A DNA stretch of 41,463 nucleotides. It comes from a virus. Taxonomy: Duplodnaviria > Caudoviricetes. The translations under genes and the position numbers were made by a program. The notes below the pieces were generated by a model. It was not told where the DNA came from, did not search any database, and saw nothing but the letters and a program-made list of their open reading frames with translations. This document shows positions 5,494 through 21,912 of this stretch, piece by piece (within the stretch, counting starts at the first letter, position 1; the number at the start of each line of letters is the position of its first letter). Location of the stretch: positions 1-41,463 of IMG/VR virus record IMGVR_UViG_3300034349_000001, one strand, 5' to 3'.

Positions 5494-7635
5494 TTAGTGA
5501 CACTCACGCCATGTGGGTCCGATCTTGTAGTCGGTGTCCAATGGGCAGCGGAAGTTGAATGATTCGCCAACATTGCGGATTGCTTGTTGACAGATTGCAG
5601 CGATGATCTCAGCGATCTCAGGGGTGCGGCAGGCGATCTGAAGTTCGTCGTGGACCCATGCCATAAAGCAGAAGTCACCGGGATTCCCTTCATCGTCATA
5701 CCAGCCATGGACGTAGCCCTGCTCTTGGCAGAGACGCTCCACTTCGACGACCCACTTCTTGCACACCAAGGCACCAGCGGACTGGAGCAGCGAGTTGAGC
5801 GCAGAGTGTGGGGAGCGGACATGGATCTTTCGGCCATCGAGACCTTTGATCCAACGGCGCTTCCACTTGATGTCGAACTTGCGAGTGGCTTGGTTCCACT
5901 TCTGCTCGGAGATGAGTTGTTCTTCGAGGGCACCGCGTAGGCCACTAATGGCCGGGGTGTTTTCCATGAAGTCCTTCTTGAGTTGCTTCCCTTCCTTCTT
6001 GCCACCACCAACGAAGGAACCGACCAGACCATCACCAGCGCCATAAAGGAACGCATAGATGAACGTCTTGGCCACATCGCGGAAGGCGTCATGTTCGTGG
6101 TTCGACTTGTCCCGTACCAGACCAGCAGGCGTGATGCCAGCGGCCAGCCCGTTGACCCAGTGGATGTCCCCGTTGAGTACGGTGTCCACATAGGAACCAC
6201 CATCGAAAGGAACCCCGAAGTGACCCAAGCAACGAAGCTCAAGGCCACTGGCATCGGAGCCCAGTTGGACTGCTCGTTCCCAGCCCTTCTTCAGCTTCCT
6301 CGCAAAGAGCGCCCCAAAGAGCGCACGGCACGCAGGTCCGTACTTCTTCTTGGCGCTCGGCACTTGGCCCATGTTCGGATGGGAGTGGGTCGCACGGCCT
6401 GTTACAGCCCCGTTAGGGTTCACTGAGCCATGGATACAGCCATCGTCACGCACGTAGCGCAGCCACGCCTTGTCGCCCTCAGAGAGCATCCCGATCACCT
6501 TAGTGACCTCAAGGAATTCCCTCACGAGGTTGATGCAGAGTTGCTTCTTGGGATCAGAGACCTTGACGAATTCAAGGACCTCATCGTCCATCTTGGCAGC
6601 GCCAGTGTTGGTCAGCTCAGTGGGGACCCAGCCAGCATCCCGAAGGACCTTCTCAAGGTGCGCCCGTGAGCCGGGGTTGAACGTGATGAACTCGATGGGG
6701 GTGTATGGAGCGCCCTCAAAGGTCTCACGGGTGTCCTTGCGTTTCCCATCCTTGAGGTAGACACCGCCCACCTTCGGGTACTTGACCTTGGGCATGACAC
6801 GGCCATCAGACCAGTAGTCGATAGGCTGGCCGGACTTCGGATTGAGGAACGGCGAGGTGCCCCCTTTAGGTTGCCACCAAGACCCGAAGGTCTGGATGAG
6901 TTCCACGAGGAGGTCACTACGCCTGCCTGCCAGTTCGCAGTACAGCTTCTCAGCCCCATCAGTGTCGAAGGGGAAGCCGTTGCGTTCCATCTGAGAGAGC
7001 GTCCATGCAGCGGCGTGTTCCAAGCGAACGGCCTCAATGGCCTCGCCTTGATCGTTGAAGTAGTGCAGGTCCGAGAGGATCTTACGGAACAACATAGAGG
7101 TGACACGAACGTCCTGCTCGCAGTAGTCCTCCATGGCTTGTGAGCATTCCAGCCATTCCATGCCCGGTGTGTACTCAATGCCACCGTCTTCGCAGAGCTT
7201 GATGAAGTCGGTCTTGTACTCGCCCTTCATCTCGCCCAGACGATAGCCCCACGACTCCAGAGAGTGAGAGCCAAACATCTTGCCGGGAAGGATGCCAGAG
7301 CGGAGCAGACCAGCGTCACGGTCGCCCACGTTGGAGTAGACCAGACGGGTCATCACCAGAGTGTCCATCACGCGCTTCCTTGGGATGTTCAAACGCTTGC
7401 CGAAGTAGAGGCGCTTGAGCTTGTCCAGAACCGGGATGTCGTACTTGATGAAGTTGTGCCCGACGATCATGCCATCAGGCTTGGCAGCTTCGGCTTCGAG
7501 AGCAGCAAGGTACTCAGCGAAGGTGGACTCATCGTACCGGGTGTATTGCCCAGTGAAGTAGTCCTGAATGGTGGCGCAGTGGAACCGGGTTACTTGTTCG
7601 TAGAGCCCGTTCGTTTCAATGTCAGAGATGAGCAT
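5494..7635 (-). CDS. gp5: Family A DNA polymerase with 3'-5' exonuclease and thioredoxin-binding loop
   Basis: DIETNG, GHNFIKYD, DASGLELR, RDVAKTFIYAFLYG and WVHDE motifs; GSWWQPKGG...APYTP loop. Confidence 0.98.
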   Translation of the reverse strand: MLISDIETNGLYEQVTRFHCATIQDYFTGQYTRYDESTFAEYLAALEAEAAKPDGMIVGHNFIKYDIPVLDKLKRLYFGKRLNIPRKRVMDTLVMTRLVYSNVGDRDAGLLRSGILPGKMFGSHSLESWGYRLGEMKGEYKTDFIKLCEDGGIEYTPGMEWLECSQAMEDYCEQDVRVTSMLFRKILSDLHYFNDQGEAIEAVRLEHAAAWTLSQMERNGFPFDTDGAEKLYCELAGRRSDLLVELIQTFGSWWQPKGGTSPFLNPKSGQPIDYWSDGRVMPKVKYPKVGGVYLKDGKRKDTRETFEGAPYTPIEFITFNPGSRAHLEKVLRDAGWVPTELTNTGAAKMDDEVLEFVKVSDPKKQLCINLVREFLEVTKVIGMLSEGDKAWLRYVRDDGCIHGSVNPNGAVTGRATHSHPNMGQVPSAKKKYGPACRALFGALFARKLKKGWERAVQLGSDASGLELRCLGHFGVPFDGGSYVDTVLNGDIHWVNGLAAGITPAGLVRDKSNHEHDAFRDVAKTFIYAFLYGAGDGLVGSFVGGGKKEGKQLKKDFMENTPAISGLRGALEEQLISEQKWNQATRKFDIKWKRRWIKGLDGRKIHVRSPHSALNSLLQSAGALVCKKWVVEVERLCQEQGYVHGWYDDEGNPGDFCFMAWVHDELQIACRTPEIAEIIAAICQQAIRNVGESFNFRCPLDTDYKIGPTWRECH

Positions 7636-15541: not shown

Positions 15542-18196
15542 TTATGCAAAAGCAAATTCAGATTTGAGGATTTCACGGATGTCCAGAGTTCCTTTCTCAG
15601 GAAGCTCAGGCATCTTGTCGAGTTGGGTTTCGTGCAACTGCTCCATGAACTGGTCACGGAAGTCAGCGAGTACATCGTTGTTCTCATACGTCTCAACCAT
15701 CGTTTCCCGTACAGCGCGGAACATCGCACCGGCTTTCGCAGGGATGGTCCCGAAGGAGTCATGGATGAGGCAGAAGAAGTCGATCCCGTAGTTCTCAGCA
15801 GCATGGACCACCGTCTTGCGGAGGTGACTGCCATCTTGGGAGTGAACAAAGTTTGGCGAGATGCCCGACTCTTGTTTGCGGGCGTCGATCTTGTCGCTAT
15901 CTCGCACAGTCACGGTGGACTGCAAGCGGATGTCCCCGAGGAACATCAGGTCGATACGGCGGGTCTCTGGGACCATGTATTCCTGCCACACCGGGAAGCC
16001 ATCAGGCGTACACCAGTAGACAGGCATTGCAGGCTTCAGCAGGTCTTTCGTCTTCTTGCACTTGACCTCAGAGGACAGCAGCTTCGCAGCCTTCTGGAGC
16101 CAGTTCATTGCTTCTACAGCAGCGACCACTACAACACTCACTGAGTCCCAGATGAGGCCAGCCATGAAGCGGCTCGCTTGACCCGGATCGGTGAACATGT
16201 GGCCTTCATCGTTATCAATCGCTTTCTTCACGATGTCTTCACGAACCTGATCGGCGAACCCGTAGGCTTTCGATCCGTAGGCGAGGGTCATCACGGAGCG
16301 CTTAGTTACCTTTCGGGACATTCCGTAGGAGAGCCAAGCCATAGCGAGGGTTTTTGTTCCAAGGACCACTCGTTCCTTAATTTCTCCCGTCTTTTCATCG
16401 ACGAGGGTCTCAGTGGTGTTATCGGTTCCGGTGGCAGCGAGTACGAGTAGGGCAGCTTCAACTTCGTCAGAGACGAGCTTGTAGATGTCTTGAACGGTTT
16501 CGCTGGGAAGCAGATTGACCGCCCGACCCCCACGTTCATCGCGAAGCATTGCAGAGAAGTGCTGGATACCAGAACACGATCCATCGAAAGCGATTGGTAT
16601 AGCTGAAACATGGTTGGCGCCATCACGCTTAACTCCTTCCCACTCGAAGCAGAATGCTAAGAAACAGAACGGCGAGTCCAGGCTCATCCATTCGATATTG
16701 GTTAGTGGGTCTCGGGCAGTCGCAAGGATCATCCCTTCGTTGTCCAGAACCCACTGCTTGCGTTCCTCAAAGGTGACCTTATCGACCCCAGCGGTGTTCG
16801 CACCGTGAATCATCAGCCACTGAATCCCTTCCTCACCGACCGGCTCACCCTTAGCTGCCTGCAAGACACCTTTGGTCATGTCATTGGACTGAGGGTTGAA
16901 CGCAGGGATCGCATAGACCCGGCCACGCCAATCGAGGTTGTAAGGGAAGTAGATGGCCTCGAAGTCCTTGAACTTGTTGGCCTGCTCAAGGGAGAACTCA
17001 TAGGAGAGTCGCCGAGAGACCCTTGCGGCATCCTTGCGGTAGATCGCAGAGGCTGCCTTCTTCCACACCTTGAGAGCTTCCTCGTTGGTGTCGATGTCAA
17101 ATGGCTTGGTCGGCAGTTCCTCACGTTCCGTTGTCGGGAACTCTTTGATCGGGACGTTCTTCCATTCCATCACCGCGTTGGCCACATCGAGAACTCGACG
17201 GTTGATGGCCCATGCGGTGTTCTGAGCGAGGTTCACAGCCTTGTAGACCTCAGGCATGTGGACATCCTTGTAACGCTTCAAGGCCCGCTTAGAGGGGACC
17301 CGGATGAACGTCACAGGCTTGCGACCTTTGGCCCAGTAGCCACCACCTTGAGTCGAGACCCACGGCTTCGGCTGTACGACCATTGGCTGGTAGCGCGGGA
17401 AGATCCCCGAGAGGATGTAGGCCCGAGACTGGAGCTTCTCAGCCCATTCCGACTTGAGGTAGACGTACTCACCGTCAAGCTTCTTGTTGCCCTTGTGTTC
17501 ACGAACGACCTCAATCAACTGGGTCGATTCGATCAGCAGCTCCAACATGCGAATGCCCATGTGGTACTTCACATCGGCTTCCATGGCATCCCATTGCTGC
17601 CACTCGTGGGTCAGCTTGCCATCGTCAATCATTTGCTGCTCGATCCGCGCCATGTACTCCACCTTGTAGGTGTTGCCATTGCGTTGAGCGAGGGCCTTCT
17701 TGAGGTGGCGCTGGTAGTAGGCTTGCTCGGCTTGCCGAACTCGACCATAACGAGCTTCTTCTTCGAGGGCACCACCGATGCTCACAGCCATCTCAGTGAT
17801 GGTCGGAGCGCCGTTGCGTTGAGCGATGCGGTTGATCGTCCAGCGAATGGTCACCGAGGCGATAACGTCAGGGTTCATTTGCTGGAAGGCAGCCAGAGCT
17901 ACGTGCTTGCGCCGTACCTTCGTGGTCTGGTGTTCGATCCACTCGGCGATTGCCGTTGAGAGGAGCGGTACGAGGGTTCCGAGGAGTGGCTTGGCGACTG
18001 AGTTCATGGAGAACTCGCCACGGTCCTGAGACTTCTCAAGGGCCTTGAGGAACTTCTCCTCGCCCAGTGTGTAGGCTTCATGTTCCAAGTGCAGTTGCTC
18101 AGCGGCGAGTGCTTCACCGTAGATGGCTGCAAGGGAGTCGAAGGCGTGAGTTGCGGTGATGTCGCTAAAGTCGTGACGCGCAGATGCTTCAAACAT
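15542..18196 (-). CDS. gp1: Single-subunit T7-type RNA polymerase
   Basis: 884 aa; DWRGRVY, FDGSCSGIQH, RKVTKRSVMTLAYG, IHDSFGT and C-terminal FAFA. Confidence 0.99.
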   Translation of the reverse strand: MFEASARHDFSDITATHAFDSLAAIYGEALAAEQLHLEHEAYTLGEEKFLKALEKSQDRGEFSMNSVAKPLLGTLVPLLSTAIAEWIEHQTTKVRRKHVALAAFQQMNPDVIASVTIRWTINRIAQRNGAPTITEMAVSIGGALEEEARYGRVRQAEQAYYQRHLKKALAQRNGNTYKVEYMARIEQQMIDDGKLTHEWQQWDAMEADVKYHMGIRMLELLIESTQLIEVVREHKGNKKLDGEYVYLKSEWAEKLQSRAYILSGIFPRYQPMVVQPKPWVSTQGGGYWAKGRKPVTFIRVPSKRALKRYKDVHMPEVYKAVNLAQNTAWAINRRVLDVANAVMEWKNVPIKEFPTTEREELPTKPFDIDTNEEALKVWKKAASAIYRKDAARVSRRLSYEFSLEQANKFKDFEAIYFPYNLDWRGRVYAIPAFNPQSNDMTKGVLQAAKGEPVGEEGIQWLMIHGANTAGVDKVTFEERKQWVLDNEGMILATARDPLTNIEWMSLDSPFCFLAFCFEWEGVKRDGANHVSAIPIAFDGSCSGIQHFSAMLRDERGGRAVNLLPSETVQDIYKLVSDEVEAALLVLAATGTDNTTETLVDEKTGEIKERVVLGTKTLAMAWLSYGMSRKVTKRSVMTLAYGSKAYGFADQVREDIVKKAIDNDEGHMFTDPGQASRFMAGLIWDSVSVVVVAAVEAMNWLQKAAKLLSSEVKCKKTKDLLKPAMPVYWCTPDGFPVWQEYMVPETRRIDLMFLGDIRLQSTVTVRDSDKIDARKQESGISPNFVHSQDGSHLRKTVVHAAENYGIDFFCLIHDSFGTIPAKAGAMFRAVRETMVETYENNDVLADFRDQFMEQLHETQLDKMPELPEKGTLDIREILKSEFAFA

Positions 18197-18334: not shown

Positions 18335-18601
18335 TTACTTCGTTACGACAATCCTGCCCCGAACGTCGGACATCTTGTAGAGAAACTCTTTGATCTCGTA
18401 GTCATCGTTCCCGTGCCCAGTAGACCCCTGAGTGATCTTTAGGAAGGACTCGTTGAACTCGACCTCAAGGCAGTCCACATGACGACCACAAGGGCCATCA
18501 CCGTAGGTGAACTCGACCTCTTTGGCGTTTGGTTTGCCTGGGACAATGGCGAGGAAGCGCACCGTGTGGATTGGTGCATCCTTCTGGTCTCTGAATTTCA
18601 C
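18335..18601 (-). CDS. Hypothetical early protein (88 aa)
   Basis: GTG start after GGGGAGG; MKFRDQKDAPIHTVRF. Confidence 0.75.
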   Translation of the reverse strand: MKFRDQKDAPIHTVRFLAIVPGKPNAKEVEFTYGDGPCGRHVDCLEVEFNESFLKITQGSTGHGNDDYEIKEFLYKMSDVRGRIVVTK

Positions 18602-18602
18602 C

Positions 18603-18875
18603 TCAGAAGCCTCCCCGGTAGCAGCGAGTGAAGTCCCCGGTGTCGCTGTAGCGCAGCTTCGAGCGCTGGTGGTCAGCGATGGCGTCATTCAAGGTGCAGA
18701 TGCGGGCCAGTACAGCCTGCTCACCGAGCCCTGAGCCACCGTAGAGGGCGGTCATCACCGAACGCTTAGCATCGGGTGTCTTCATGGTCGCAGCGATTGC
18801 AGCGTGCTTAGCGGCAGTAATACGGGCATCTGTCAGACCCTTGCGGGCAGGTTGGAAATTGCTATGCAGACTCAC
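18603..18875 (-). CDS. Hypothetical early protein containing an RNAP motif-B-like segment
   Basis: 90 aa, coupled to the upstream gene; contains KRSVMTALYG. Confidence 0.78.
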   Translation of the reverse strand: MSLHSNFQPARKGLTDARITAAKHAAIAATMKTPDAKRSVMTALYGGSGLGEQAVLARICTLNDAIADHQRSKLRYSDTGDFTRCYRGGF

Positions 18876-19576
18876 TTCACTTCACTCCAATGAACAAGTA
18901 GGTGCCGCTCGCCAGAGGTGACGGGCAGGCCGTAATGCAGGGTTGTTTTACCTTTGAAGAACATCGCCCAGCCCGGTAGGTTCTGAGGGACCTTCACGTC
19001 AGGGAAGAACGGGCCTTGAGCGACCATCGTCCCACCACCTTCGTGGTCATCGTTAAGCGCCACCACCAGAGTGACATCCGAGTCCCTATCAGTGTGCCAA
19101 TGGCCCCTGTCAGTCTCTGAGGGCTCGTATACGGCGCTTTGCACGCTGGTCAGTACGTCAGGCTCAAGATTGAACAGAACCTTTGCCAGCGGCACACCAG
19201 CGTCTGCCCAGAAGCTATGGAAGACCTCATAGAACACTGGGTGGTCGGACTGTAGGGTCACCTCAGGTATCTGCGCCTCAAGGGGCTCCTCAAGGTTGGG
19301 CTCATGCACGAACTTGGAGACCTCGTGAATGATGTCCTTGCAGTACTCAGGGTGCAGATAGGCCACCGAGTAGACACCGGGCGCATGGCAGACCACGCAG
19401 TCATCCAAGAAGGCTTGCCACGAGGAGTCCTCAGCGAAGTCCTCAGGGTTGATCCCGCCGTTGTCCTCAGCGTACTTGGCCATCTCTTTGAGGGTCTCAA
19501 GGTGCGCCTTTAGGGCAGGGTGGTACTTGTCCCACGAGGCAATGCCCGTTGTTGCCTTGGTGAAGACCCGGCTCAT
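18872..19576 (-). CDS. 2OG-Fe(II) dioxygenase (PLOD/OGFOD-like)
   Basis: HTD..VTLVVALN..EGGGT...GWAMFF.G...HYGLPVTSGER: HxD...H triad plus the 2OG-binding Arg. Confidence 0.9.
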   Translation of the reverse strand: MSRVFTKATTGIASWDKYHPALKAHLETLKEMAKYAEDNGGINPEDFAEDSSWQAFLDDCVVCHAPGVYSVAYLHPEYCKDIIHEVSKFVHEPNLEEPLEAQIPEVTLQSDHPVFYEVFHSFWADAGVPLAKVLFNLEPDVLTSVQSAVYEPSETDRGHWHTDRDSDVTLVVALNDDHEGGGTMVAQGPFFPDVKVPQNLPGWAMFFKGKTTLHYGLPVTSGERHLLVHWSEVK

Positions 19577-20168: not shown

Positions 20169-20255
20169 CTATGGAACGAAGAACAGAGCGATCATTGTCA
20201 CGAAGCAGCCGATCAGGAGCCCGCCCAGCATCCCTGTGATGATTGCGTCTTTCAT
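20169..20255 (-). CDS. 28-aa hydrophobic peptide (not in ORF track)
   Basis: MKDAIITGMLGGLLIGCFVTMIALFFVP; ATG overlaps the upstream TGA. Confidence 0.62.
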   Translation of the reverse strand: MKDAIITGMLGGLLIGCFVTMIALFFVP

Positions 20256-20575
20256 TGGTCGTCGTCCTCATCCTCGTCCAGCTCCTCCTCAAACTCGATG
20301 TCTGAGTCGTCTTCGTTCTCAAGCTGGTCCTCAAGCTCGCTTGTCAGCTCGGACTCATGGTCACCTTGAGCGCACCGGAAGGCCACCGGATCGACGCCTG
20401 AGAGGATCGCACCGACGTTGTAGGTCATCCCGCAGATAACGACTGGCTCGTAGATCTCGTCGAGGATGTCCTCATACTCGGACTCGGAGAGGTCAACCTC
20501 GCCGTTGGTGACATCGTAGCCTTTGAACTTGGTCACGTTGTCGGTGTGCCAGAACTTGTCGTGTTTGAGTGCCAT
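20252..20575 (-). CDS. Highly acidic early protein, candidate Ocr-like DNA mimic
   Basis: 107 aa with about 35 D/E versus 5 K/R (hand count). Confidence 0.7.
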   Translation of the reverse strand: MALKHDKFWHTDNVTKFKGYDVTNGEVDLSESEYEDILDEIYEPVVICGMTYNVGAILSGVDPVAFRCAQGDHESELTSELEDQLENEDDSDIEFEEELDEDEDDDQ

Positions 20576-20576
20576 G

Positions 20577-20870
20577 TCAGTTAGTCCCATGTGGGTTGTA
20601 GTGAGCTTCAGAGCAAAGCTTAATCATGTCGCGGAGTTCACGCACCGAGGAGAACCGGAAGATCATCCCAGTGCGATCCTCAACGAGCCAGTAGGAGCCC
20701 TGCCAGTCACCCCAGTGACCAACGGTGTAGACCAGCTCGCGGTGGTAAACCTTGAGGAACTCAGCGGGAACCTTGAGGGTCAGAGTGTACTTGGAGAGCC
20801 TCACAGCCTCCTCAGCGTCACTTATCACAGGCATGGCCAGGATTGCAGCAGTTAGATCATGGATACGCAT
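20577..20870 (-). CDS. Hypothetical early protein (97 aa)
   Basis: Tiles the early operon; GAGGG RBS. Confidence 0.75.
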   Translation of the reverse strand: MRIHDLTAAILAMPVISDAEEAVRLSKYTLTLKVPAEFLKVYHRELVYTVGHWGDWQGSYWLVEDRTGMIFRFSSVRELRDMIKLCSEAHYNPHGTN

Positions 20871-21713: not shown

Positions 21714-21741
21714 ATTCTACAGCGTTTCGTGTGTCTGTCAA
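21714..21741 (-). promoter_or_regulatory. Host sigma70 early promoter
   Basis: TTGACA-16 nt-TAGAAT. Confidence 0.85.
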
Positions 21742-21884: not shown

Positions 21885-21912
21885 ATTCTATAGATATTCA
21901 ATGATGAGTCAA
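21885..21912 (-). promoter_or_regulatory. Host sigma70 early promoter
   Basis: TTGACT-16 nt-TAGAAT. Confidence 0.8.

Follow-up and report, generated by a model that had tools for sequence, protein, structure and literature searches.

A small early protein of T7-like phages with an optional helix resembling polymerase motif B, a candidate decoy

Why should a 90-aa early protein of a T7-like phage carry what looks like motif B, the O-helix, of the phage's own RNA polymerase (RNAP)? The question was raised by a sequence-only reading of a 41,463-nt viral genome (IMG/VR record IMGVR_UViG_3300034349_000001; the whole of this stretch is referred to below as the window), which proposed a polymerase-mimic decoy, a regulator or a domesticated duplication fragment. 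The genome in the window is T7-like and circularly permuted; its genes lie on the minus strand, and it is kin to gh-1-like Pseudomonas phages.

The small gene, its neighborhood and its family

The small early gene (18603..18875, minus strand; PHROG 19243/7066/11917 family) is a real gene. Its GTG start overlaps the stop of an upstream 2OG-Fe(II) oxygenase gene (18872..19576, minus strand) and is preceded by a GGAG ribosome site. Most Pseudomonas relatives show the same coupling of the two genes, with the oxygenase labeled wrongly in various ways (hydroxylase, glycosyltransferase). Downstream, a single gene separates the small ORF from the T7-type RNAP gene, gene 1 (15542..18196, minus strand; phrog_414). 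This intervening gene (18335..18688, minus strand) belongs to the T3 gp1.05 family (PF25755, E 2e-19), and its true start is likely the GTG at 18601. Members of the gp1.05 family lie before gene 1 in the window but after it in T3 and K11, and the central inserts of the homologues in L001, L008 and L022 differ strongly.

A phage promoter (18307..18325, minus strand) lies between the small genes and gene 1, with the small gene upstream of it. Sigma-70-type sites were found upstream of the small gene (21714-21741 and 21885-21912), as was a further copy of the phage promoter (22903-22921). Because of this layout of genes and promoters, the small gene would be expressed before the RNAP, from host promoters, in agreement with the early timing assumed in the sequence-only reading. 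The phage promoter consensus is also matched at 16 of 19 positions inside the RNAP gene (16338-16356, minus strand), just upstream of the motif B codons. Another protein of the early region (112 aa; 20252-20590, minus strand; PHROG 9396) has a long acidic tail and is a possible DNA mimic as judged by composition only. At the end of the small gene, a GGAGG within the codons of G88 and G89 (18610..18614, minus strand) probably serves as the ribosome-binding site of the next gene. All gh-1-like loci shown use GGA for G88, and the RGG tail of the protein is likely conserved because this site sits there.

The small protein matched the profiles of PHROG 19243 (E 2e-16) and PHROG 7066 (E 1e-6). Members of PHROGs 7066, 19243 and 11917 include CR8 'gene 0.38', Phi-S1 gp08 and CHF19 gp07, and the family is unannotated. 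Homologue searches gave 19 homologues, 69 phage records and 38 cluster representatives, with distant members reaching Pifdecavirus, Troedvirus, Kayfunavirus and Caroctavirus CR8. The enterobacterial homologues are 16-25% identical to the query, and the enterobacterial and Pseudomonas clades are homologous by profile comparison (hhalign 97%, E 1e-11). The Ro45lw protein had matches at 60% identity or more in 232 records, 209 of which were from Kayfunavirus. In the Studiervirinae records examined, the family gene lies directly before gene 1 or one gene before it.

An alignment of 143 sequences (90 non-redundant at 90%), from which P0004 (a fragment of the query), P0048 (a truncated protein) and P0051 (a 6,637-aa non-match) were left out, revealed two conserved segments. 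The first is a motif-B-like module, K37-G47 (18735..18767, minus strand), with the pattern K-x3-M-x3-Y-G, which was present in 61 of the 90 non-redundant homologues and absent from the other 29. Among the 61 long forms, G46 was conserved in 92%, K37 in 90%, Y45 in 87% and M41 in 72%, and the residues between them vary. The second is the family core, Y76-T83 (18627..18650, minus strand), with the pattern [YFWH][TS]xxGDF[TS]; its first part resembles RNAP residues 667-672. G80-D81-F82 in this C-terminal core was the best-conserved segment of the family overall, a ranking that is partly built in because loci were chosen by the GDF pattern. The expectation that the polymerase-like motif would be the most conserved segment was thus not borne out, since GDF ranks higher and 29 of 90 homologues have no module. 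Shorter homologues in Melnykvirinae and in Vibrio phage JSF38 have the C-terminal core without the K..YG module. The GDF itself, the invariant part of the family, had no match to the RNAP.

Likeness to motif B of phage polymerases

Residues 37-46 of the small protein (KRSVMTALYG) are identical at eight of ten positions to RNAP residues 632-641 (KRSVMTLAYG), which lie in RNAP motif B (K632-S642, equivalent to T7 K631-S641; 16271..16303, minus strand). At the DNA level the two stretches match at 25 of 31 nucleotides, two of the differences being synonymous and four resulting from a swap of Ala and Leu codons. All coordinates, sequences, counts and types of difference given in the sequence-only reading were correct on recheck. 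Outside the motif, DNA identity drops to background (41/91 and 55/151), and there is therefore no sign of a recent copy. When the same peptide was recoded with the codon usage of the genome, a match of at least 25/31 was obtained at P=0.046. Of 45 random 273-nt segments, four found a 31-nt match of at least 25 elsewhere in the genome. A recent duplication at the DNA level was ruled out, because the DNA likeness stops at the motif and 25/31 is near chance given the peptide. Among the 12,238 10-mers of the proteome, the peptide pair was the closest match between different proteins, and an 8/10 pair also occurred in two of six shuffled proteomes. Taken singly, then, the self-match is near chance, as P=0.046 and the shuffled proteomes indicate; its significance lies in the profile of the whole family.

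This profile consisted of 13 columns and was built from four member sets (all 61 long forms, 36 Pseudomonas members, 21 of those at no more than 45% identity, and 25 enterobacterial members), each of which was compared with the proteomes of the window, CR8 and T7 (first 20 kb). RNAP motif B ranked first for all four sets (1 of 12,025, 11,250 and 5,443 positions, respectively, in the three proteomes, which are not independent tests since the three RNAP motifs are identical). The profile of all 61 members scored 19.4 bits on RNAP motif B (p 7e-8), and the 25 enterobacterial members alone scored 14.6 bits (p 2e-6 per position). None of 1,194 control windows from nine neighboring families reached 19.4 bits (maximum 18.3), and 22 of them reached 14.6 somewhere. 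Within the family itself, the segment at residues 37-49 scored 24.6 bits compared to 8-16 bits for other segments. Motif B of the family A DNA polymerase (K523-A533; 6037..6069, minus strand) was the second- or third-best match with all members and ranked 2-15 with subsets, bearing out the resemblance to this enzyme that had also been suggested from the sequence. Two unprompted hits, each individually non-significant, pointed the same way: motif B of N4 RNAP II was one of four matches at E<=10 in a PDB search (E 1.3), and the sole NCBIfam match of member P0041 was a family A polymerase model (E 0.045), presumably through its motif B stretch. The resemblance to polymerase motif B noticed in the single protein is thus real at the level of the family: it is family-wide, under selection and located in an optional module.

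The small protein shares with motif B of T7-type RNAPs (T7 gp1 R627-K631-M635-Y639-G640; N4 RNAP II gp16, PDB 6DT7) the pattern K-x2-[VIL]-M-x3-Y-G-[GS] at exact spacing and is predicted to be helical there, K37, M41, Y45 and G46 being equivalent to T7 K631, M635, Y639 and G640. According to PMC9836923, K631, M635 and Y639 of T7 RNAP contact the incoming substrate. The K..YG helix of family A DNA polymerases is homologous to that of the RNAPs, and some members of the small family fit it better than the RNAP motif. In contrast to the enzymes, the small protein, with 90 residues versus ~880, has only the K-x7-YG of motif B together with the family's own profile and GDF motif. An equivalent of T7 R627 is absent (four residues before K37 the query has Thr, at a position that the family does not conserve), and neither palm motif A nor palm motif C, with their catalytic aspartates, is present in the 90-aa protein, whose alignment spans RNAP 602-680 only. 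A lone helix without palm or R627 cannot catalyze, and the protein, whose module is moreover optional, cannot polymerize.

Members differed in which polymerase they resembled most. Among the Pseudomonas members, 24 of 36 were nearer the N4-type motif, and 21 of 25 enterobacterial members were nearer the T7-type motif; P0083 and P0084 matched the DNA polymerase motif at 6-7 of 11 positions. These leanings fit a surface shared by the polymerases rather than one copy of the phage's own enzyme. The label 'N4-like RNA polymerase' on one hit (H212) was rejected: it belongs to the RNAP gene in an unverified record whose annotation looks offset, and for this reason it was discounted as support. Annotation coordinates seem shifted relative to the sequence in L024 (OR594184.1), an unverified record. 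In the alleles of L023 (3309-3539) and P0019, the start of the module is lost and the YG half kept, like the end of the DNA polymerase motif B.

Origin and predicted structure

In a profile comparison, residues 11-88 of the small protein were collinear with RNAP residues 602-680, at a modest level of support (hhalign probability 42%, P 2.6e-4), and 11 other phage proteins gave P>=0.08. No RNAP signal was left when the motif was masked. A second collinear look-alike lies in RNAP residues 667-672 (16181..16198, minus strand), 31 residues past the motif B glycine, a spacing that is mostly 29-35 in the family. For nine columns ending at G80, RNAP 664-672 ranked 2-4 of about 12,200 positions, but in the enterobacterial clade this second match ranked only 90-754. 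As it fails in that clade, and as the signal is gone on masking, duplication of the fingers is no more than plausible. On these sequence comparisons we lean slightly towards the small protein having arisen beside gene 1 by partial duplication of the RNAP fingers (about residues 600-680) and later decay; convergence or a short insertion is the alternative origin. Of the domesticated duplication fragment proposed earlier, the fragment origin hence stays plausible, and a recent copy at the DNA level does not, the likeness ending at the motif.

The structure model had a pLDDT of 68 and a pTM of 0.47, with residues 21-60 at pLDDT 79-87. Helices were predicted at residues 14-31, 34-44, 50-58 and 62-72, the second of which ends at the YG of the module. 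Foldseek detected nothing in the PDB at E<=0.001, a fold search of BFVD placed only family members on top, and in the VIA fold search the best Z was 4.7, with no polymerase fingers among the matches listed; none of the three is evidence of a different fold. There was no Pfam match for the family and no usable feature match in the ESM Atlas. A predicted complex of the small protein with its own RNAP scored 0.00, which is evidence neither for nor against binding.

Possible roles of the module

The reading that we favor, and hold tentatively, makes the central helix a decoy: its target would be a host protein able to recognize the fingers of phage polymerases. The small protein would be a two-part early protein, in which the optional central helix, matching the O-helix of single-subunit RNAPs, occupies a host sensor or inhibitor that otherwise reads the fingers of the phage RNA (perhaps DNA) polymerase, and in which the GDF core, kept by the short alleles, has a separate role. 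This reading is favored because the substrate-facing residues are kept, because the motif drifts between RNAP-like and DNA-polymerase-like forms instead of tracking the invariant RNAP, and because the module is gained and lost in near-identical phages. The fuller proposal that a domesticated fragment of the RNAP fingers became a swappable immune decoy, which implies a bacterial sensor of the motif B helix common to phage RNA and DNA polymerases, is bolder, and we put it forward with somewhat greater reserve.

Selection on the module bears both on the decoy and on a rather unlikely alternative, namely that the job of the protein resides in the GDF core and that the helix is a dispensable remnant, or a convergent helix capped by K..YG, with no mimicry involved. 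Among seven gh-1-like long alleles, the motif had a pN/pS of 0.31 and the linker one of 0.91, with the N-terminus (0.58) and the C-terminus (0.36) in between; this stronger constraint on the motif than on the linker argues against a relic, as does the conservation of K37 at 90% across members of 16-75% identity while its neighbors vary. In 15 Kayfunavirus alleles, however, the motif (0.29) was not lower than the linker (0.24) and did not differ from the flanks, as expected of a relic, and the short alleles are common and retain both flanks, with the core standing alone in Melnykvirinae and JSF38. For K, M, Y and G only, positions that were chosen after the fact, pN/pS was 0.03; these residues are under purifying selection. 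M, Y and G could also be ordinary helix-packing and capping residues, which counts against the decoy.

On an RNAP tree with 45 tips, presence and absence of the module required seven changes of state; a tree of the flanks (90 tips, 53 columns, weak) required 11, compared to a mean of 27.8 after shuffling (both trees by FastTree). The RNAP of phage L008 is 0.007 substitutions per site away from that of the window, but its small-gene allele is nonetheless motif-less. Over 4.7 kb that take in gene 1, the two phages share 94.6% identity, and their small genes do not differ in the final 54 nt; the segment corresponding to 18657..18824 (minus strand) is swapped in L008 for a shorter, motif-less sequence, and a different gp1.05 allele was exchanged together with this middle part of the small gene. 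CHF19 (long) and phiPSA2 (short) showed the same pattern. The occurrence of different alleles in near-identical phages speaks against a relic, and such exchange fits a host-dependent accessory trait, but simple mosaicism fits as well. A suspected co-variation of the 'PYG' of Aeromonas homologues with their own RNAP was ruled out, as the Atoyac14 RNAP has no proline at that site. A possible hairpin over the GDF codons, judged by eye, was inconsistent across loci.

Known host sensors offer analogies on both sides of the decoy reading. Avs19 senses the core domain of family A polymerases and does not need the catalytic aspartate (PMC13581612), and that such a host sensor exists speaks for a decoy; the available text of that source gives neither the epitope nor any phage decoy. 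Avs sensors bind whole folds (PMC13581612), so that one helix may be too little as a decoy. DNA polymerase is the trigger of Borvo, and mutations that escape it map to the proofreading cleft (10.1101/2022.08.27.505566) and not to the fingers, which counts against the decoy. The Avs triggers that the available text of PMC13581612 lists do not include RNAP, and Avs22-24 are given there as having no known trigger. Ocr and the other DNA mimics discussed in EVADES (10.1101/2025.06.06.658234) are likewise small early proteins acting by imitation, but they imitate DNA, whereas the small protein would imitate the phage's own enzyme. In the literature searched, which left out most subscription papers, neither this family nor a decoy built on a polymerase motif was the subject of any paper, and no sensor of single-subunit RNAPs was named.

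If the decoy reading is true, the family would be an anti-defense protein imitating the active-site helix of the phage's own polymerase, and its existence would hint at a host receptor for single-subunit RNAPs, a core phage protein outside the Avs triggers listed in the available text of PMC13581612; the pairs of long and short alleles in near-identical phages would then be a ready route to the sensor. With more than 200 Kayfunavirus-type records from E. coli and Salmonella phages (including K1F) and about 70 records of gh-1-like Pseudomonas phages, the family lends itself to tests in laboratory strains. Should there be no decoy role, the likeness is still a first clue to the structure of a conserved early gene that lacks annotation.

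Other roles appear less probable than a relic. That DNA, an NTP or a nucleotide signal is the ligand of the K/M/Y face, with the protein serving for instance as a small, perhaps oligomeric sponge, is improbable: the conserved residues are the substrate-contacting ones of T7 RNAP, and the protein is small with a basic N-terminus, but it lacks R627 and the palm aspartates, a single helix forms no pocket and no known sponge family was matched in Pfam, NCBIfam or the PDB.

A host take-over factor that fills the C-terminal shut-off role of T7 gp0.7 in lineages without that domain is more doubtful still. In T7, this domain (residues 243-359) binds DNA (PMC13645617), and the small protein shares with it the slot before gene 1 as well as its small size and basic character. 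The three genomes with kinase-only gp0.7 genes of 242-244 aa, CR8 (L050, 1875-2603), LET1 (L020, 347-1081) and EclP_26 (L027, 1735-2469), all have the small gene before gene 1, and in all six genomes whose kinase is full-length, its gene extends as far as gene 1 and the slot has no small gene. However, these are nine genomes only and the pattern is confounded with lineage; it also leaves the motif unexplained. Homology to the shut-off domain was ruled out, with an hhalign probability of 0.2% or less for five sub-alignments and an HMM match to T7 gp0.7 at E 3.7 only. Equally doubtful is a protein that regulates the RNAP or DNA polymerase of its own phage and whose helix would replace the O-helix or compete for a phage partner, as the position of the gene next to gene 1 might suggest. 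Against it, the motif of the small protein is often a better fit to N4-type or DNA polymerase motifs although that of the RNAP does not vary, and alleles without the motif are viable.

The CR8 homologue (L050, 2975-3331) contains, in the stretch that joins the module to the core, a unit of ~17 residues repeated exactly in tandem.
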